A stretch of 63,984 bases of DNA, filler included, from Perkinsus olseni (GCA_013115125.1; 15 parts of 15 records of this genome joined end to end with filler, not necessarily neighbours in it), one strand, 5' to 3'; shown: positions 21,437 to 60,868, counted from the first letter of the whole stretch. Notes: generated from the letters alone by a model not told the origin. Program-made: numbers and translations.

Positions 21437-22091
21437 TGAGGTAGGATAGAGTTGAAGCTGAATTGGTTAATACGATGAGATAAACCGGGCGCCATTAATG
21501 ACGCCGACAAAGTTGTGCGCTCTTAGCCAGTTGCCAAGTCGCGTACGGTCTTCTCCAGTGCATGCCCAGGGAATGGAAATCCGGGTTTGAATCGACTAAT
21601 CTGTTTCAATCGGCTATTGCGTCCAATCTTGATCAAGGAGAGCATCTCAGAGAAACCTCCTGTCAAGCTGCTCCGTAATGTCGGATTGCAAATCTCCCGT
21701 GTCCATCATGCCCGTGCATGTATTTCTGCCCGATCCTCGTTGTGCGGAACCCTGTGCGATTCAACTTTTGACCAAGCGTGCTCAGTCGTTCAGGAGGTAT
21801 TAATCCGCCTACGNNNNNNNNNNNNNNNNNNNNNNNNNNNNNNNNNNNNNNNNNNNNTTAATTAATTAANNNNNNNNNNNNNNNNNNNNNNNNNNNNNNN
21901 NNNNNNNNNNNNNTTGCCGACGCGAAATTGGCGCAGTGGTAGGAGCGCTTGTTATCTAGTGGATCAACCGGGATCGATCCCAAAAGTAAGCGACTAGAAA
22001 TTGAAGTGCTAGAGTCTCTGGGCCCGGGAGATGCGCGCGCGGAGCCCGCGGGCAATCATTTAATCATTATTTTTGGGCGACGCATTGCCCA

Positions 22092-22330
22092 GCTGTACGA
22101 AAATTCCGAAAAGTACGAAAATTCGATGTACAAAGTAATACTGTACGAGTTTCAACTATACGAGTCGGACCTGTACGACTATTCACTGTACGTACTGGAA
22201 GTGTACCACTCGATACTGTATCAATTGTCAGTGTGCGAGTTATCAGTGTATAGCCCAAGACTGTACGTGTGGAAACTGTACGGATCAAGCTTGTACGAAT
22301 GCAATTTCCACGAGTTGTCGCTGTACTGAA
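22092..22330 (+). repeat. Degenerate 15-bp-period array with TGTACGA core
   Basis: About 16 units with a conserved core and a variable 6-7-nt remainder. Confidence 0.8.
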
Positions 22331-23017
22331 CGATCCTAGCCGGGTAAAACCCTCCTGCATCACCGCCGGTGATTCACCGGGGAGCTTCTGCCAGAAGTAC
22401 ATGATCATGAAGGACATGCTTCCATGCTGTCTCAATGCCGTGAATACACTGAGGCACCGGGACTTGCGTTCGTGATCGAATCCTTCCATTGCGAAGCCCG
22501 GGAGACCGTGCACCTTTGACCTCTCCCGCCACCTTTCCGGGTCCCGTCCCATTCGTTCGTATACATTCTGCCATTCCAGGTCCGCACTTGCCACCCGTGG
22601 ACGGCACTACTTGCTTTAATCTCACTTCTATCATCGACAGCTACTCGAAATTCTTCCTAGTGCGTCCTACTCAACACCCACCAGACTGAAAATGTAACCG
22701 GGCCCCAAATTTTGTCTACGTTTCTCTGTTTTGTATGATTATTTGTATGAGTATTTTTTCTGACAAAATACTGCATTAGAAAAAGTTGATTCACGTCTCA
22801 AGCCACCAATTCCCGCAGGCTTCTAACTCCTGCGTAGGACCGAACCAAGTCGTTCCCGGCCGACCGCTTGCCGTGGTGACAGCCGACGGCGTATGACGCT
22901 ATCGGCACTGTATAACTCGACAGCATACGACGCCGTCTGCACTGTACAGTCCTCGCTCTCCCGAGCTTTGGTCTTGTCTTCACCTGGCGGATGTTCACGA
23001 CTGAGGGCCACTGAAGA

Positions 23018-23101
23018 CTCGTACACGGAAAACTCGTACGCAAAATACTCGTACACATAATACTCGTACACAAAACACTCGTACACATAATGCTCGTACA
23101 C
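23018..23101 (-). repeat. 15-bp-period array (CTCGTACAC+N6, six units), inverted relative to 22092-22330
   Basis: Read directly; the same motif also occurs at 8786-8850. Confidence 0.85.
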
Positions 23102-24153
23102 CCTGCGAAAATTTTTTAGTCAAGTCGGGGAGCCGCTCCGCGACTTGCCTAAAAGATAGTGCGTAGACACCCCAATCCTGTCGTCTGTGACACCCCGATG
23201 CCGGGTTCTACAAATGGATTCAAGTGGGTCCGGTGGTCGATATTACATTTATATTCTCCTTCTTTCGGGTGAAGAAGTCCCCTTCGTGACAAATAGCTAT
23301 ATATTGTCTCCCTGACGAGCCCGGTATCATTCCAATCGTCGCGAGCTTCTTAGTCTCTTTCGTGGAGTTGCCAGTGCCGCACGAATTCTTCAACAACTAC
23401 TCCCTGCTCAATATCAGTCATGTTAGTCACTAGGTAAATGAAGTTGAAGCTTGTTATAGAGTGTGATGATGCTGCCTCCGTCCGACGGTGCGAGACCACA
23501 GCTTCTACGCTCAAGATGACCTCAGTCGAGACGGACGTCATTATTCGGTTGGTTGGCGCGCTTGGCACTCGACTTCACTTCATCAAGGCTTTGGTCCCCT
23601 ATGGGATTCGCCACTTGACGGGAATATCTAACACAAGGGCAGACGGGTTAAGCAGGGTGCTCGAAGCGCCCAATACTGGTTCATCAGCGACCATTCACTC
23701 CTTGTTTGGAGCCGTCATTGCGGAAGAGTTCACTTCCTCCAGAAAGCAGAAGAAGGGACTCTTCGAGGCGGCCGAGAAGATGCATGCCGAGGGCGAGCGC
23801 GATGCCGACACCGATTGCTGTTGTGGTGGGTGCCCTAGACCTGCCATCTTTAGGAACCCATGCTATTCATGGGGATGGTGTTCATCTGGTGCAAGAATGT
23901 CTCTCTTTCGCCAGCCCCGAAGGGCTCTTTGGTACAGGGATATGCTCGGTCTACGTCGAACACTTTTTTATCGAGTCTCTTGAGACGGGTGATGCCTTAC
24001 CGCCTGCCCTTGACCCAATCTCGGGGTTGAGGCTTCGGCAACACCTTGGAATGAAGGATTTGTGACGCCTCTGGCGGGAAGTGGCGCTTCAAGTTTGGCC
24101 TCTCAAGGACAGAAGAATCCGAATGCCATCGCCGCTAAGGTGTTCCTTCCAAA

Positions 24154-24693
24154 ATGGAGGATAGATTTCGGTTTCGGGAACATAACGAGATGGTCGGCAT
24201 TGTCTTCTATGAGGCGGGGCTTGGTACTCTAGATAGTCAGGGTAACTTCACTGCGACAGTACCTCAGACGATACTGGTAACCAAGTACCTACAGAGTCTC
24301 GAGATTGTTGCCGAGGTGTATAAGCGTGCGATGGCTGACCTACAGACCAAATACCGATGGAGTGAGATAAGCGATATCCTGAATCAGGCCTTTGGGGATC
24401 GAGTTGCTATGCGTACTGAAGTCGCGCGCCGACTCCGACACCTGAGGTTCCGAGGATTTCAGCATGTCGATGACTTCATCCATCAGTTTACCATCATCAC
24501 TAACATGTGGATGCCGATCTACTCGTCGGGGTTTAGGGAGTCGCGTTACCTTGTGGCTAGCTTCCTCGCCAAGCTACCGTCTGATACTCTGGAAGGGGTG
24601 GTCAATGGAATCTTGCGGGAGGTTCCCAAGGAGGGTGCTCCGATCGGAGAGGATTATGTTCGGCTCCGTAGTACGGCCCCTGCTCCGAAATGA
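24154..24693 (+). pseudogene. Retrotransposon gag fragment
   Basis: RWSEISDILNQAFG...LRHLRF...VDDFIHQF matches the retrotransposon gag pattern. Confidence 0.6.
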
Positions 24694-26259
24694 GCTCCTT
24701 TTGTTGATCTGTGCGATTCGATTAGGCATTTTCGGATACTAGTCATGAATCCACTTTAGTTGGTCCACTTTCCGAGTCTCATCGGAAATAGAACGGCAAG
24801 TGAAGGGGGCCTCGTATGCGACCTCATGGAGACCAATGAGAACCTTCCGCCATCGAGCACATGTACCATTTGTCACTATAATAGCCCTCCGCCGGTGGTC
24901 ACCGCTGATGTGCACAGCGCCTTTTGCATGCTACGGTTGTGCAGTTCTTTCCGAGCGTCTGCACAATATTTTTGCCGATACCCGGGAGACCCCAAGTCGT
25001 CCTCATGACCACCACAAATGTCTCCCCGCTTCGCGTTACATTACGGCGGCAGAGGGAAGTATCTATCTGATCGAGTATGTTTTGGATGTTTGTTTGGTCC
25101 CGAGTCGCTTGAATGCTCACTCAGACGACAGATATGGTCATTTCGCACTTCACCTATCTGCATTTGGTGTCGAGTGGCACACTTTGTTGATGATCTGTTG
25201 TTACATTTTGCGTTTGAAGACGCATGCAAAATTGTATTCTTGTTATCGGTATTATTATGCTCTCTATCCCTGTGTGGATTTGCAATCTCTAACCTGAAAT
25301 TTGCTATCCTAGTACACCAGTCGGTACACTCGCAGGTGCCGCCCTATCATACTTACGTTCGGGATTCCATGCCGGTCCTCGGAGTTCTGCTCTCGTACGA
25401 CCACAGGGGCTTGTGGTGGACTGTAACAGACGGTCGGGGCTCGAGAAGGCTAAACGATTGCTGAAAGCCGACAGTTGGTCAAGTCAAACAGTGTACCGCA
25501 TTGATGGCGCTCTCGGTGTTGATAAGACGGGCTTACATGCAACGTATCCGTGAACAGATGCTGGCCTATATTGATGAGGGTCTTGAACATCCAAGTCATC
25601 ACGACACCCCAATCCTGTCGTCTGCGACACCCCGATGCTCGGTCCAACAAATGGATTCAAGCGGGTCCGGTGGTCGATATTACATTTACATTCTCCTTCT
25701 TTCGGGTGAAGAAGTCCCCTTGGTGACACATAGCTAGATATTGTCTCCCTGACGAGTCCCGTATCCTTCCAATTGTCGCGAGCTATGAAGATGCCTGTGG
25801 ATACCTCCCGCTCGTGACATCTATGGATGAGAAGGGATCACACAACGCCACAGACCTAGAAACCCCAGAGGATGGTGCACACCTGGACAAAACTTGGTCG
25901 CTTCAATAAACACTAGTTTCTTGCCGACGCGAAATTGGCGCAGTGGTAGGAGCGCTTGTTATCTAGTGGATCAACCGGGATCGATCCCAAAAGTAAGCGA
26001 CTAGAAATTGAAGTGCTAGAGTCTCTGGGCCCGGGAGATGCGCGCGCGGAGCCCGCGGGCAATCATTTAATCATTATTTTTGGGCGACGCATTGCCCAGC
26101 TGTACGAAAATTCCGAAAAGTACGAAAATTCGATGTACAAAGTAATACTGTACGAGTTTNNNNNNNNNNNNNNNNNNNNNNNNNNNNNNNNNNNNNNNNN
26201 NNNTTAATTAATTAANNNNNNNNNNNNNNNNNNNNNNNNNNNNNNNNNNNNNNNNNNNN

Positions 26260-56115: not shown

Positions 56116-56703
56116 GCGTAGAGTACTTGTAGAGTACTTGTACTTGTAGAGTTGGCGGCACCATCGGGATGGGTGTCCGCGGAATCATGAGGCCACTCCG
56201 AGGGAAGTTGGTCTGGAGAAACATGGAACAAATTTGGCGGTTTCTGGCGGATTACCTGAGCGTGCCCTCCTGAACGGCGGCTGAGTAGGCACTTGAGAGC
56301 CGTTAGTCGGTGGTGGCTGCGTAGGCTGAAGTTGGGTTGGAGGAAATAAATCCAATTCTAGAAAGACGTAACCTGAAAGAGAGAAGCTTATAGCTAGTAG
56401 GGTGTGGGAGAGCAGTGAAATCGTGTATGACCTTCATCTGCTTGTCCTTCCAGAAGAGGCAGCTCGCGGTGCGNNNNNNNNNNNNNNNNNNNNNNNNNNN
56501 NNNNNNNNNNNNNNNNNTTAATTAATTAANNNNNNNNNNNNNNNNNNNNNNNNNNNNNNNNNNNNNNNNNNNNGCAGGGCTGCCTATACGGAGCTCCAGG
56601 ATATCACATTAGATATCCGAGGTCGGCTCTGGCAGGATACAAAACAAGTTGGCTTGTGGCATATTCTCGGCTCAGGGCGTTGTGGCGTCCAGGCCACTGC
56701 CCC

Positions 56704-56824
56704 TTTGTCGTCTACCTAGCCATGCTCGGTCAAGTTGTTGTTATCGCCCATCACGGGACGATAACCTCGCTATGCCAGCAAAAGGGTACTGATGAGTCTG
56801 TGTGGCAGCAGACGAAACGTCAGA
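56704..56824 (+). ncRNA. Hammerhead ribozyme (type III fold) in the 5' LTR
   Basis: CTGATGA 56789-56795; stem II GTCTG/CAGAC; GAAA 56814-56817; stem III TTTGTCGT/ACGTCAGA (one U-U mismatch); GTC triplet 56710-56712; stem I TACCT/GGGTA. Confidence 0.78.
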
Positions 56825-59800
56825 TTGGGTTGTCAGACGGTAAAAATAACAACAACTTGAATTACCTCTCAGGGTTTGAGTTGTGAGTGCCCTTCAATCG
56901 GCTCGGGAGTGAGGCAGTTTGTTGTCCCATGACCGTGTCGGAAGTTGGGGAGAATGAGATCAAGGTTCATGTGTCGGCCCCCGTACCCTTCCCGTCCAAA
57001 GGAAGTTTCGAGGACCTCCGTCGCATGCCGGACGATCTCACTCGTGTCCGACGTTGGGGAATCAGTCAGCAACAAACGGACCGTGCGACCGTGGCAGTCT
57101 GCTTGAGTCATCTGCAAGCGGACGTGTTACGCCACCTAGAGCTGTTCAAGCCCGAATTGGAGTATGCCACGTGGGAGATCTTCAAGTTGGAGTGTCTCCG
57201 TGCCACTAAGGTCCTGTTGGGAGGAGGACTACTGAATCATGAGTTCCTCCAGATGAAGATAAGAAAGAAGGAATTTGGGCTGAAGACCGAAACAGTCGCG
57301 GAGATTAGATTGAATTTCCCGGCTGGAGGGGCCAACTCGGGTAAGACGGCTAAGTTCCCTCTGAGATGTGGGGAGAACACCCTCTGGGTCGAGGCCTACG
57401 TAGTGGATGACTTGGTGAAGGGTAAAACGGTCTATATAGGGAGACCGGATTTGAACAGAAACCGAGTGTGTCTGGATTTGGCAACGGGACGCTTCCGGGT
57501 GAGAAACGCCTGGATGAAGCTGCCCGAGGGTACTCAGTGTTAGAGGGTTAGAGTGTGAACTCTTTGCTAGATGTAGTTTTCTTCGGGAATCGGTGTGGTG
57601 TTAGGGAGCTCGGGTGTCTGGGAAGGGAAGCCGTTCTCCGTCCTGTCGGTAAAGGATCGTAACTTGTTCGGTGACCGTTCTCGGGTACGGGTCGTCGGCG
57701 TGACGTTGGAGGCCCTCGCTGGCCAAAGGCGTGGCGTTCGTGGCTCCTTTGCCGAGACCCCCATGACAGCGCAAGAAGGGAGTGATCGGCTAACGCGTTG
57801 CCACCAAATCGGTGTCCGGGTTCAGTCGTGTGCTTGCAGATCCTGTCATGACATTCTCCGCTGAAGAACTCAACGAGCTGAAAGGGTTCCGTTGTCTGCA
57901 AGATGGACCCCTAGGGTGTGCCAAAGGGATTAAGTTCCGCGTGGACACGACCACAGAGAGTCCGGTCTTCTCCCGACCGTATCGGATGAATCCGATCGCG
58001 GCCAAGAACACCAATAAGTTGGTCAAAGAATTGTTGGATGAAGGGGTGATTGAGGAGACAACCAGCCCGTGGGCGTCCCCCGCGTTTGTGGTACCGAAAC
58101 GAGACGGGAGTGGCAGACTGGTGGTGGATTATAGGAAGTGGAACAAAATTACCGTCCCCGATCGCTACCGCTCTCCAACAATAGAGGAAATCTTGGGAGG
58201 AGTCTCGGAAGGGGCGCATTTCTCGGTGATTGACCTCCGAAAGGGGTTTCACCAAGTCGAAGTGGAGGAGGCGTCCCAGGGCAAACTCGCCTTCATGATC
58301 GGAAACAAGCAGTACACCTTCCGAAGAATGGCGATGGGCCCCCGGAACGCGCCGGCGTGTTTCCAACGAGCGGTGGATGCCGCATTCGGAACCTTATTGG
58401 CGCAGTGTTGTTTCGTCTACTTAGACGATATAATAATATATACCCCTAAAGGGAAGGGAAAGGCGGGGCATCTTGCGGATGTGAAACGGACTCTAAGGGG
58501 CTTTGGACCTAGCCGGGTTCACTACTCGCTTGGATAAGTGTAAGTTCGGACTTGACAGCCTGGACTACCTGGGACACCGGATAGAGCGGGGAGTCATCCG
58601 GCCGATGTTCTCCAATGTTGAGCGGATTATGCGGTCCAAAAGGCCGTGGAATCTGCAGTCGCTACGACGGTTCCTCGGAATGTGCGGGACCCACACGGGC
58701 GATTTGCCCGATGGATAGCGGCGCTGCAGCAGTTCGGGGGTATGACAGTGCAGTATCGCACTGGAGTGAGCAATGTGGCGGCCGACTACCTCAGTAGGGA
58801 CATTGAGGTCGAGTTTGCGCCAATCGAGACCCGGATTCGCACATTGGATGGGTTGAAGAAGGCCCAGGATGAGGACGGGGACTGTCAGGCTTGGAGATGT
58901 CAGGGTAAGTTCCCCAGCGGAAGCGGTCTGGAGCGCCAAACGGCGATCACAAGGGATCCTGGAACGGGAGTTATCACTCTTCACGGTAAAGCGATAGTCC
59001 CACCACTCTACCGAAAGGAAATTCTGGATGATCTCCATCGGTCCACCGGGCATGTTGGGATAAATAAGCTCTATGAGCTGTCTCGACGGGTATTCTTCTG
59101 GCCTGGTCAGAAGGAAGCTTGCCGAGAGTATGTGAATGGTTGTGAAGGGTGTGCCCGCACGAAACCCGCGACCCATCGCGCCGTGTTGCGACCTTATGAG
59201 AGCAAGGATCTCTTTGCGGATATGCAGGCCGATATCTGTGGGCCACTACCGCGCACTCAACGCGGGAACGAGTATTTACTCGTGATAGTGGATCAGGCGT
59301 CCAGGTTCCCCTGGGCTTATGCCCTGAAGGATACGAGCGCTGCGACCATCGTGGAACGATTAGGAGAGGTCTTTAGCTTCACTGGCGCACCGATGCGGTT
59401 AGGGATGGACCAGGCCCAGTATTTTACTGGGGCGTTAACAAGGAAGGTGATGGAGTTATATCAGACGGAGGTGGTGTCGGGGCCGCTCTATCGGCCACAA
59501 GCCCGAGGGCTCGTAGAAAGGACGATCGGCACTGTGAAGCGTAGGCTCGCCGCCAGTGTGAACGGGAGCGAAGATTGGGATACCTGTATAGACTGCGTTC
59601 TGGCTGGAATAAGGGCTGCAAAAAGTGAAAGTCTTGGGATGAGCCCCTTTGAGTACCTGACTGGGCGACACATGAGATTACCCTCTATGGTGGGAGTCGC
59701 CGAAGTCAAACCGATTCAGGATGACGCACGGGCTGCTGACATCAATCGCGCCGAGCGAATCCGTCAGGTTCTGGTGCGAAGTCGGCGAGTGGCTGAAGCC

Positions 59801-60183
59801 CATTCCCGCACTCGGAGTCTCCAGAACGTCCTTGGCACACGGAGTACCCTTGTTCCCCAGTTTAAGTCTGGAGACTTGGTGCTATTCAGCAAGGGGTTGA
59901 AGCCCCGAAGGAAGAGCGCGGTGGCCGGGTTGTTTATCGGGCCGTTAGAGATAGTAAAGAGTCTGAGCCCGTTTGTGTATAAGGTGAGAGGAGGAGGAGA
60001 ATCCTTCATCGCTCACGCAGACAATCTGAAGGCCTACCGTGGGAAAAAGCGGGTACTCCGGGATGAGGATGACGGGAATTCGCGGAAGAAACGGCGGAAC
60101 ATGGTGAGAAAGTTCGGAAAGGACGAGAACCAGTAGATCGTCTTTTCCCCGCTTGAGGAGTATATGGTTGATCCTCAGGTACG

Positions 60184-60313
60184 AGTCGCTCTCGTGGGTG
60201 AAGAAGACACGAGAAGTTCGTCTTCAGTTGTGGAAGACGAGGAGTCTAGTCGCTCTCGTGGGTGAAGAAGACACGAGAAGTTCGTCTTCAGTTGTGGAAG
60301 ACGAGGAGTCTAG
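60184..60313 (+). repeat. 64-bp exact tandem duplication in the element's 3' UTR
   Basis: Units start at 60184 and 60248. Confidence 0.92.
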
Positions 60314-60511
60314 GCCTAGCGGAGACCGCGGTGTTGATCATGATCATGAGTAGTTTCGTACGTACGCAAATCGAGTTGAGTTCACTCTAAAGGGAGTCCA
60401 GTGAGCGATGAGGCTGGGTATAACACCGAGCCTTGTAGCGAGCGGCAGGCTGAACTGAGAGGCACGGAGACGGCAAGTGCGGGGGAGTTGTGGCGTCCAG
60501 GCCACTGCCCC

Positions 60512-60632
60512 TTTGTCGTCTACCTAGCCATGCTCGGTCAAGTTGTTGTTATCGCCCATCACGGGACGATAACCTCGCTATGCCAGCAAAAGGGTACTGA
60601 TGAGTCTGTGTGGCAGCAGACGAAACGTCAGA
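60512..60632 (+). ncRNA. Hammerhead ribozyme, identical copy in the 3' LTR
   Basis: Same sequence as 56704-56824. Confidence 0.78.
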
Positions 60633-60868
60633 TTGGGTTGTCAGACGGTAAAGGCGTGTGAGCAGAGGCAGTTGCGCTAAATCTATACCATGCAGGTGCC
60701 TATTTGGCGGGCAGGGCTGCCTATACGGAGGTCGAGGATATCACATTATCGAGACAGCAAATTGGCGGNNNNNNNNNNNNNNNNNNNNNNNNNNNNNNNN
60801 NNNNNNNNNNNNTTAATTAATTAANNNNNNNNNNNNNNNNNNNNNNNNNNNNNNNNNNNNNNNNNNNN

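Follow-up and report, generated by a model that had tools for sequence, protein, structure and literature searches.

To our knowledge, the only hammerhead ribozymes on record within long terminal repeats (LTRs) belong to plant retrozymes, small non-coding elements whose origin and autonomous partners have been deduced and not observed. Hammerheads in terminal repeats were reportedly also described, by Cervera and de la Pena in 2014, for Penelope-like elements, which have a telomerase-like reverse transcriptase (RT), a GIY-YIG endonuclease, minimal hammerheads of type I, and pseudo-LTRs that arise when copies insert in tandem. The HDV-like ribozymes of R2 and L1Tc free the element RNA from a co-transcript and set its 5' end. 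The relevant passages of PMC4918200, PMC7761336 and PMC11722881 present retrozymes as non-coding elements with LTR-borne hammerheads, those of plants being 600-1000 nt long, with LTRs of ~350 nt, a 4-bp target-site duplication (TSD) and a tRNA-Met primer-binding site (PBS) (PMC4918200). In the plant retrozyme NbRZ1, a 115-nt promoter precedes the start site, which is LTR nt 116 and lies upstream of the ribozyme. Penelope-like elements with terminal-repeat hammerheads also figure in PMC8557442 and in a 2026 bioRxiv preprint. The original prediction for the locus studied here, a hammerhead in both LTRs of a protein-coding element, named no described case, and this stands: our search of the literature on hammerheads and Perkinsus found none (its matches concerned sharks), and the retrozymes are described as non-coding.

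The window analysed is a stretch of 63,984 nucleotides, filler included, in which 15 parts of 15 records of the Perkinsus olseni genome (GCA_013115125.1) are joined end to end with filler. An LTR-retrotransposon insertion of 3972 nt occupies positions 56681-60652, with its coding strand on the plus strand. The 5' LTR (56681-56844, TGTGG...GGTAAA) and the 3' LTR (60489-60652) are both 164 nt long and identical at 164/164 nt; the direct repeat scored as 170 nt and 99%, with a spacing of 3808 nt, is the LTR together with six flanking bases. A 5-bp TSD, GGCGT, flanks the element (56676-56680 and 60653-60657), and the empty site with one GGCGT copy was present in the RNA-type contig run X7 (joint 56675->60653, 'both' = 5) and also, as loose ends, in run X6. 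With its identical LTRs, TSD and empty site, 56681-60652 is a genuine, young, transposed element of the Ty3/gypsy (Metaviridae) type, as had been predicted, and its RVT_1, Integrase_H2C2 and rve domains bear this out. The alveolate host is confirmed by the named best protein matches, which come from Perkinsus olseni (100%) and P. chesapeaki (70%). The PBS position (56846-56860) begins 1 nt after the 5' LTR, and a purine run, GGGGGAG (60481-60487), occupies the polypurine-tract position 1 nt before the 3' LTR; a repeat search also found a tandem pair of identical 64-nt copies (60184-60311) in the 3' untranslated part. Searches of viral, metagenome and prokaryote collections, and of predicted proteins, yielded no sister LTR.

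The coding content is that of a damaged copy. ORF1 (56887-57543, plus strand, first ATG at 56930) is gag/protease-like and has no Pfam match, and no protease D[ST]G motif was found in ORF1 or in the element copy searched; its resemblance to retroviral-like aspartic protease clusters, at 0.90 in Atlas features, is to be read as a lead only. The RT open reading frame (57794-58537, plus strand, Met at 57848) holds the N-terminal and palm parts (RVT_1, E 5.6e-21; residues 1-165 of sister protein P0002 by tblastn), and the C-terminal part lies in another frame (58437-58694, plus strand, by tblastn), with the tblastn pieces in frames 2, 0 and 2 and a frameshift near 58440-58495. This part ends at an RNase H deletion point at ~58685-58690; a DNA contig break falls at 58684-58688 in run X6. 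In sister proteins P0001 and P0002, RNase H (PF17917, PF17919) is listed between RT and integrase, and residues 232-344 of P0002 and 1-138 of P0001 have no counterpart in the element by tblastn. The integrase frame (58622-60136, plus strand) comprises the zinc finger, the DDE core and the C-terminal part (Integrase_H2C2, 1.4e-15; rve, 8.8e-9) and is 100% identical to P0001. RT precedes integrase in the window copy, from which RNase H is absent. This copy is defective, its RT being split over two frames, its RNase H deleted and its protease motif lacking; the description of the element as gag-pol-bearing therefore holds for the RT and integrase domains but not for an intact RT, RNase H or D[ST]G motif. 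A Penelope-like element was considered as well and is ruled out by rve, Integrase_H2C2 and true LTRs with a TSD.

Each LTR carries a type III hammerhead motif on the plus strand, at 56704-56824 in the 5' LTR (predicted cut 56712/56713) and, identical and offset by 3808 nt, at 60512-60632 in the 3' LTR (predicted cut 60520/60521). A complete core in both LTRs had been predicted, and every listed part was found when the pairs were verified singly. Stem III joins 56704-56711 to 56817-56824 by 7/8 pairs, with a U.U mismatch at 56708/56820 and only three contiguous pairs beside the core, and the cleavage triplet GUC (56710-56712) places the predicted cut after C56712 (C60520 in the 3' LTR). Stem I (56713-56717 with 56784-56788, 5/5 pairs) closes a 66-nt insert (56718-56783) to give a stem I arm at 56713-56788, with an internal loop, AGCCA/AAA, just above the stem. 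The catalytic core and stem II (56789-56817) consist of CUGAUGA (56789-56795), a stem of 6/6 pairs including one G.U (56796-56801 with 56808-56813), the loop GUGGCA and GAAA (56814-56817). All conserved core positions are present (C3 U4 G5 A6 N7 G8 A9, G12 A13 A14 A15.1, U16.1 and H17), as are the pairs G10.1-C11.1 and C15.2-G16.2 of the Rfam consensus line; stems I and II are closed and stem III is open, which is the type III topology. The two predicted cuts lie 3808 nt apart, and the arithmetic of the earlier figure was correct.

A loop-loop contact between UGGCA in loop II and UGCCA in loop I had also been put forward. The two are indeed complementary, with UGCCA at 56773-56777, but every predicted fold engages UGCCA in pairing within the arm of stem I. 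The internal loop just above that stem contains GCCA (56719-56722), which is complementary to loop II UGGC (56803-56806) over 4 Watson-Crick pairs (random frequency 0.035) and may be the better-placed partner, making it a candidate contact in the modelled folds. Approximately 40% of hammerheads are estimated to use such loop contacts (Perreault et al., PMC3088659).

The motif is of non-random quality. Our own descriptor matched only the two LTR motifs across both strands of the whole window, even at 3 bp per stem; the 30-nt core/stem II string occurred twice in the window, with 0 expected, and 41 Mb of composition-matched random sequence yielded 28 lenient matches, none of the observed quality. 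A two-step null estimate gave ~6.6e-4 motifs per Mb per strand, or ~8e-5 per window and 1e-7 per LTR. Across ~250,000 such windows, should the scan have been so large, ~20 chance motifs of this quality would be expected, so that much of the weight falls on the motif's position within LTRs. The core positions and three helices in the correct order, together with the low chance expectation, speak for a hammerhead, as does, by analogy with retrozymes, the sense-strand placement in both LTRs, where known LTR-borne hammerheads do the same job. On these grounds each LTR motif is probably a genuine hammerhead.

The Rfam hammerhead models count against this, with no hammerhead reported at gathering (cut-off 48.5 bits, RF00008) and only sub-threshold Hammerhead_3 matches in E-value mode, of 17.4 bits in the 5' LTR and 16.6 bits in the 3' LTR (E 5.6 and 9.7), which vanish when the whole window is searched. 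In the sub-threshold alignment only the core and stem II are placed correctly, stems I and III being mis-assigned, and the model is unable to place the 66-nt stem I insert. As an indicative control only, IMG/VR was searched with the same 21-letter core pattern, and of the 11 matches obtained none was reported at gathering, an indication that genuine hammerheads can miss this score. Several of these 11 matches sit in phage tRNA arrays.

Low Rfam scores would also be expected of a non-cleaving motif, a chance or decayed look-alike in an LTR whose structure has other uses, namely the self-priming fold, a long helix that closes it and a hairpin of 35 nt, CUGAUG...CGUCAG. Consistent with this, the stem III is imperfect, the minimum free energy (MFE) fold of the LTR is not the hammerhead but has the core paired to the strand of stem III, the motif comes from a single family, and a very large scan entails multiple testing; moreover, the two copies are identical and so lend no covariation support. 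We nevertheless judge a look-alike unlikely, given the ~1e-7 expected per LTR under the null model, the presence of all core positions and consensus closing pairs, an insert that folds so as to close stem I, and the IMG/VR matches that likewise stay below gathering.

Folding predictions bear on both readings. When folding is left unconstrained, the MFE structure contains stems I and II, and the hammerhead fold lies 0.4 kcal/mol from the MFE for 56700-56830 but 3.7-5.3 kcal/mol above it for the whole LTR, where CUGAUG pairs with CGUCAG. The stem I arm (56713-56788) folds by itself into one long irregular hairpin (z -3.33, 1/200 shuffles as good). The 3' end of the LTR, AGACGGUAAA (56835-56844, plus strand), had been offered as an alternative stem III; it cannot be one because it does not follow GAAA, and in whole-LTR MFE folds it instead forms a 10-bp helix with 56704-56713 that competes with stem III and occludes the predicted cleavage site.

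Returning to the preferred reading, of a genuine hammerhead, we infer the following course of events. A transcript with a whole LTR would fold stems I-III during synthesis and cut itself after C56712 or C60520, yielding an RNA with a 5'-OH end 17 nt ahead of a self-primer-like segment. The LTR provides no more than 31 nt before the predicted cut, so that a complete 5' hammerhead needs transcription from the flank or a start within the first ~23 nt, and the ribozyme would most likely trim the product of transcription that enters from outside or begins at the LTR's very edge; this lack of promoter room, unlike in NbRZ1, counts against a hammerhead. Cuts in both LTRs would release a 3808-nt unit RNA, which on ligation would become a circle containing a single complete LTR, the arrangement of plant retrozymes. 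Once the RNA has been made, the 10-bp helix that 56704-56713 forms with the LTR end may mask the site and shield uncut or ligated molecules. Taken together, a self-cutting hammerhead in each LTR, an externally sourced transcript and a circle-forming RNA make up our leading interpretation, held tentatively and with slightly less than even confidence. A circle junction would read like an intact LTR in any case.

The primer-binding site complicates this interpretation. Positions 56846-56860 are the complement of the LTR's own 56730-56744, a 15/15 match to a segment within the stem I arm; they lack a TGG start and do not match a tRNA 3' end. It is possible to imagine a hammerhead that is genuine but serves solely to fix where a linear genomic RNA begins, as ribozymes do when they cut co-transcripts in the non-LTR elements R2 and L1Tc (HDV-like). 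In the 5' LTR the ribozyme would be transcribed in full and cut at 56712/56713; in the 3' LTR the transcript would end before the core (before ~60592), so that the 3' copy is never complete and redundancy is kept. The ordinary LTR pathway would follow, with 56730-56744 priming the PBS as in Tf1 and proteins made from a separate RNA started or trans-spliced near 56913. The self-primer match, which links the canonical PBS position to a segment 17 nt downstream of the cut, fits this, as do the 31 nt of upstream LTR and the self-priming of Tf1/Tj1 from a 5' mRNA segment, which is predicted in other lineages too (PMC4600332, PMC6317226). In known elements, a self-priming PBS works on linear, terminally redundant RNA (PMC4600332), which counts against the preferred reading, since cleavage within the 3' LTR would abolish the redundancy of any RNA that is not then circularised. 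At the same time, the LTR has no mapped 3' end, and an uncapped 5'-OH genomic RNA would be unusual in LTR elements. We also know of no polyadenylation signal for Perkinsus, and we consider a linear RNA of this kind unlikely.

RNA-type contigs add a further, partial view. In two studies (X8, X10) they span 56912/56913 to 57507/57570 and start beside AG; ORF1 has a depth of 399 vs 5-9 for pol in X7, and RNA-type contigs hold it at 25-50x the pol depth, making it the most abundant part. These contigs hint weakly at a distinct messenger for ORF1 and are in keeping with the linear RNA, against which it must be said that none of the three RNA-type contig sets (X7, X8, X10) covers the LTR.

One nt after the predicted cut, 56714-56734 (plus strand) is the best spliced-leader match in the window, at an edit distance of 4 to both PmaSL1 and PmaSL2 (query sequences as printed in PMC3101222 and PMC9399869), with runners-up at 5 (SL2) and 6 (SL1). 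This likeness, which is suggestive only, could mean that the LTR arose around a spliced-leader or SL-RNA-like sequence captured by the element, the RNA 5' end lying at ~56714 through transcription or trans-splicing. The 5' LTR transcript would then lack the cleavage-site strand, and the hammerhead would act only on the 3' LTR, in 3'-end processing or in a self-limiting role. LTRs with small-RNA-gene sequences are on record, as in Cassandra, Helenus and Ajax (PMC10886601). We regard such a capture as very unlikely: three other SL2 matches at distance 5 occur in the window, a distance of 4 is near chance at window scale, and a linear cycle of replication would suffer if the 3' repeat were cut away. 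Furthermore, the exon-intron GGTA motif conserved in Perkinsozoa (PMC9399869) is absent at this stretch, where AAG and then TTG stand instead.

A more far-reaching version of the preferred reading is that of a Perkinsus Ty3/gypsy lineage with coding copies whose unit-length, possibly circular RNA would be excised by the hammerhead and self-primed from the stem I arm, with proteins coming from a separate spliced-leader-capped messenger; such a lineage would be an autonomous counterpart of retrozymes with no need of its own promoter. We hold this full combination to be somewhat unlikely. If a coding Ty3/gypsy family with an LTR ribozyme does exist in so distant a eukaryote, the ribozyme-in-LTR design is no plant oddity, the family is a candidate for an ancestor-like state of retrozymes, and ribozyme cutting and ligation in place of promoter-defined ends and redundancy becomes testable. 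Perkinsus is culturable (PMC4858233), so RNA ends and circles can be sought directly.

Among known systems, the HDV-like ribozymes of R2 and L1Tc involve another ribozyme class and another element class without terminal repeats. It shares with Penelope-like elements a protein-coding retroelement with hammerhead motifs in its terminal repeats and differs from them in its DDE integrase, true LTRs with a TSD and type III motif. As in Tf1, Tj1 and sushi-type elements, the post-LTR PBS complements the element's own LTR transcript and not a tRNA (PMC4600332, PMC6317226); in Tf1/Tj1, however, priming falls to the very 5' terminus of the mRNA and involves no ribozyme (PMC4600332, PMC6317226), whereas the putative Perkinsus primer forms part of the stem I arm and begins 17 nt downstream of the predicted cut, and the likeness is one of PBS complementarity. 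The plant LTR retrozymes (Cervera, Urbina and de la Pena 2016, PMC4918200), like the element, have a sense-strand type III motif in both LTRs (here at motif level), two cleavage sites (here predicted) that bound a unit RNA, flanking TSDs and Ty3/gypsy-like ends (PMC4918200). Unlike them, the Perkinsus element is 3972 nt long, with 3808 nt between predicted cleavage sites in place of a small non-coding unit of 600-1000 nt, and encodes RT and integrase (though in a defective copy). Its LTRs measure 164 nt, 31 nt of which precede the predicted cut, and it has a 5-bp TSD, an alveolate host and a self-complementary PBS instead of the retrozymes' tRNA-Met PBS with Ty3/gypsy-like boxes. The motif is probably a genuine hammerhead in a new version of the known retrozyme arrangement, with a mechanism predicted from its sequence.

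The window is made up of 15 small contigs (4.2-4.3 kb), size-sorted, unplaced and joined by linkers of the form N...TTAATTAATTAA...N, so that genes on either side of a linker are not genomic neighbours. The contig that carries the Ty3/gypsy-type element spans 56574-60768, and the element fills nearly all of it. A repeat search of the window found direct repeats spaced 3808 nt apart; trimmed to their true ends, these are a 5' LTR (56681-56844) and a 3' LTR (60489-60652) that agree at all of their 164 positions and are flanked on both sides by GGCGT (56676-80 and 60653-57), a 5-bp target-site duplication. Contigs assembled from public sequencing runs preserve the empty site with one GGCGT: those of the RNA-type run X7 contain a joint from 56675 to 60653 with five letters common to both sides, and loose ends in the DNA run X6 run directly from flank to flank across the insertion site. 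The element is a true transposed insertion, as confirmed by these public runs. An additional joint in the run contigs leads from 60710 back to 56574 and reveals a ~160-nt tandem repeat as the insertion target (56574-56680 and 60653-60768 in the window). The depth of this repeat unit lies above that of the element, and its units, empty site included, also occur in X7, a run guessed to be RNA. In X6 the LTR contig has a depth of 687 vs 309-341 for the internal contigs, about twofold, so there is no excess of solo LTRs. The contigs of runs X6, X7, X8 and X10 contain no variant letters, and hence these four runs give no sister-copy variation. A separate contig of the window, 21914-26159, has the same 239 nt at both ends, 100% identical, suggesting either a circular molecule or one unit of a tandem array, traversed once by the assembly.

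The best protein match to the integrase ORF is P0001, a protein named Perkinsus olseni (100% identical, with 94% of the ORF aligned), followed at 70% identity by P0002, named Perkinsus chesapeaki; the other 20 of 22 matches are much weaker. These relatives place the host among alveolates of the genus Perkinsus and bear out the alveolate host of the original prediction. Further relatives of the element were not found in viral_contigs by protein scan, among the 578 pattern stretches matched in metagenome_contigs by protein-alignment scan, or in the other 14 contigs of the window by tblastn and self-blastn. A search with the LTR-spanning ORF gave no candidate protein running through the LTR, and the hammerhead-plus-stems pattern had 0 matches in genome_contigs. 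The single metagenome_contigs locus that shares an LTR 20-mer (L009) was rejected as a chance match in unrelated repetitive, coding-like sequence.

Judged by its sequence, the element copy in the window is defective. It encodes a reverse transcriptase (RVT_1, 5.6e-21) and an integrase (Integrase_H2C2, 1.4e-15; rve, 8.8e-9), and P0002 matches the reverse transcriptase in two different frames, the second-frame part being 58437-58694. The RNase H, some 113-137 residues kept in both P0002 and P0001, is absent here at ~58685-58690. Fuller copies do exist, since P0001 is 100% identical over the integrase and retains RNase H. The DNA contigs of X6 break exactly at the point of this deletion (58684-58688), which may reflect deleted and fuller forms of the element coexisting. 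ORF1 has no Pfam match, with noise only at E up to 10, and no frame of 56845-57900 contains a D[ST]G protease motif; its language-model features resemble those of retroviral-like aspartic proteases (score 0.90), which we take as a lead only. In the RNA-type runs, ORF1 (56912/13 to 57507-57570) is covered 25-50 times as deeply as pol, and contigs from two studies start at 56912/56913, adjoining an AG; these observations hint weakly at a separate, abundant subgenomic messenger, perhaps trans-spliced. Numerous runs from a second organism (organism B), each with a small share, probably contain just the 56912-57570 part. Two identical 64-nt copies stand in tandem at 60184-60311, within the element's 3' untranslated part.

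Every element of the hammerhead proposed in the original prediction is present in the LTR sequence, with coordinates and pairs checked. In the 5' LTR, stem III (56704-11 with 56817-24) forms 7 of 8 pairs, with a U.U mismatch after three contiguous pairs, and runs into the cleavage triplet GUC at 56710-12, with the cut predicted after C56712 (60520|60521 in the 3' LTR). Stem I follows with 5 pairs (56713-17 with 56784-88), then the core CUGAUGA (56789-95), a 6-bp stem II (56796-801 with 56808-13) closed by the loop GUGGCA, and the core GAAA (56814-17). The connectivity is that of type III, and the closing pairs match the Rfam consensus line (A before CUGAUGA, GUC...GAC, GAAAC). A C/D-box snoRNA reading of UGAUGA was ruled out by eye, the CUGA box being absent downstream. 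The 66-nt insert of stem I is predicted to be structured rather than a floppy loop: folded alone, 56713-56788 forms a single irregular hairpin with stem I at its base (z -3.33, 1 of 200 shuffles as good). Directly above stem I lies an internal loop, AGCCA/AAA, whose GCCA is complementary to UGGC in loop II; a 4-bp match of this sort is found in 3.5% of random loops. Perreault et al. (PMC3088659) estimate a pseudoknot contact of such kind in about 40% of natural hammerheads. The loop II contact with UGCCA at 56773-77 suggested previously is complementary as described and so possible by sequence, but UGCCA is paired in all predicted folds.

The Rfam hammerhead search put forward as a check on the motif returned 0 matches at gathering in the window. 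In E-value mode the whole window gave no hammerhead and 2 weak unrelated matches, while the contig on its own gave two sub-threshold Hammerhead_3 matches of 17.4 and 16.6 bits with stems I and III misplaced; the Rfam model is unable to span the long stem I insert. We also used a descriptor (CUGANGA, stem II, GAAA, A15.1-U16.1, H17, stems I and III, and a loop I of up to ~100 nt), and on both strands of the window it matched the two LTR sites only, even at 3 bp per stem. Applied to 41 Mb of random sequence from a first-order Markov model with the window's composition, the same descriptor found 28 lenient matches; 3 reached 4/4/3 bp and none had the quality of the two LTR motifs. The 3' half with a stem II of at least 6 bp arose 5 times in 15 Mb of random sequence, and 295 of the 149,994 upstream 120-nt windows contained a matching 5' strand. 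The combined chance rate is ~6.6e-4 per Mb per strand, equivalent to ~8e-5 for the window and 1e-7 for a single LTR. Scaled to 250,000 windows, roughly 20 chance motifs of such quality are expected, and the weight of the evidence therefore rests on location: the sense strand, in both LTRs, of a young transposed element. A look-alike without cleavage, which the Rfam result and the expected number of chance motifs would allow and the location argues against, seems unlikely, and we consider the LTR motif to be quite probably a genuine hammerhead.

A 21-letter core pattern matched IMG/VR 11 times at 8 loci; Rfam at gathering called 0 of these 11 places, its only calls being 3 type II hammerheads at other positions in one locus (L006), an outcome that neither validates nor undermines the pattern. 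The matches in three of the loci (L004, L005 and L008) lie inside phage tRNA arrays and beside GOLLD RNA, and are below the Rfam gathering score.

Over 56700-56830 the hammerhead-constrained fold is nearly as stable as the minimum free energy (MFE) structure (-42.7 vs -43.1 kcal/mol), and stems I and II are already present in the unconstrained MFE; in the competing fold, CUGAUG pairs with CGUCAG. The full LTR adds a 10-bp helix between 56704-13 and the last ten LTR bases, and the hammerhead fold then lies 3.7 kcal/mol above the MFE, or 4.8-5.3 kcal/mol with flanks. The LTR-end strand that had been offered as an alternative stem III is not a hammerhead helix and belongs to a competing fold. This strand is transcribed later than the complete ribozyme, the order customary in ribozymes that cleave their transcript as it is made and are hidden afterwards. 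From this order we infer that the hammerhead would cut during synthesis and afterwards be locked by the competing helix.

At the primer-binding position, one base past the 5' LTR, 56846-60 is complementary at all 15 positions to 56730-44, a segment of the stem I arm that begins 17 nt past the predicted cut, and a tRNA-type TGG start is absent. Self-primed reverse transcription is on record for Tf1 and Tj1, and other lineages are predicted to use it (PMC4600332, PMC6317226). From sequence, then, the pair reads as a Tf1-like self-priming signature and not as a tRNA primer-binding site. Cleavage of the 5' copy would yield a 5'-OH RNA whose first base lies 17 nt upstream of the self-primer. The chief alternative with an active ribozyme is that transcripts contain a complete hammerhead at the 5' LTR alone, with RNA ending before the core in the 3' LTR, so that the ribozyme would define the 5' end in an otherwise ordinary, self-primed linear cycle. 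Such a cycle fits the self-priming signature better, because the terminal redundancy on which it depends would be lost once the 3' LTR was cut. We hold this alternative to be rather improbable, on a par with the look-alike without cleavage.

Only 31 nt of the LTR lie upstream of the predicted cut, and a complete 5' hammerhead needs transcription entering from the flank or starting within the initial ~23 nt. For the plant retrozyme NbRZ1 the start site has been placed at LTR nt 116, ahead of its ribozyme, and the preceding 115 bp suffice as promoter (PMC12029980). The 21 nt at 56714-34 (also 60522-60542), which start one base past the predicted cut, are the window's best match to both published P. 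marinus spliced leaders (edit distance 4; next-best matches elsewhere in the window at 5 and 6). We treat this suggestive likeness as a lead only; chance could explain it, as could descent from a trans-spliced ancestor RNA. That the LTR is centred on a spliced leader, and the 5' hammerhead copy never complete, would accord with this likeness, and is the least probable of the readings considered here. The contigs of X7, X10 and X8 leave 56714-56853 and 60354-60633 uncovered and are neutral on LTR RNA; as assembled contigs, the data of the four runs compared (X7, X10, X8, X6) are unable to show RNA ends. These four come from 21 runs listed, each in contig form, and X10 is the one among them that represents the small-share runs of organism B.

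The best reading, which we favour at somewhat less than even chances, is a genuine ribozyme that trims transcripts passing through the LTRs. If both copies were cut, a 3808-nt unit would be released, and its ligation could give a circle with one LTR, as for the unit RNA of retrozymes (PMC4918200, PMC7761336, PMC11722881). The literature searched describes no hammerhead within LTRs of a protein-coding LTR retrotransposon and none in Perkinsus, although the supplementary species lists of hammerhead surveys could hold such entries; among the papers listed, those on P. olseni transposons included nothing relevant, and those on hammerheads in alveolates did not contain the term 'hammerhead ribozyme'. 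A Penelope-like element is excluded by the DDE integrase and true LTRs. The element would work like a retrozyme and yet is none, as it is coding, 3972 nt long, with 164-nt LTRs, a 5-bp target-site duplication, a self-priming primer-binding site and a protist host.
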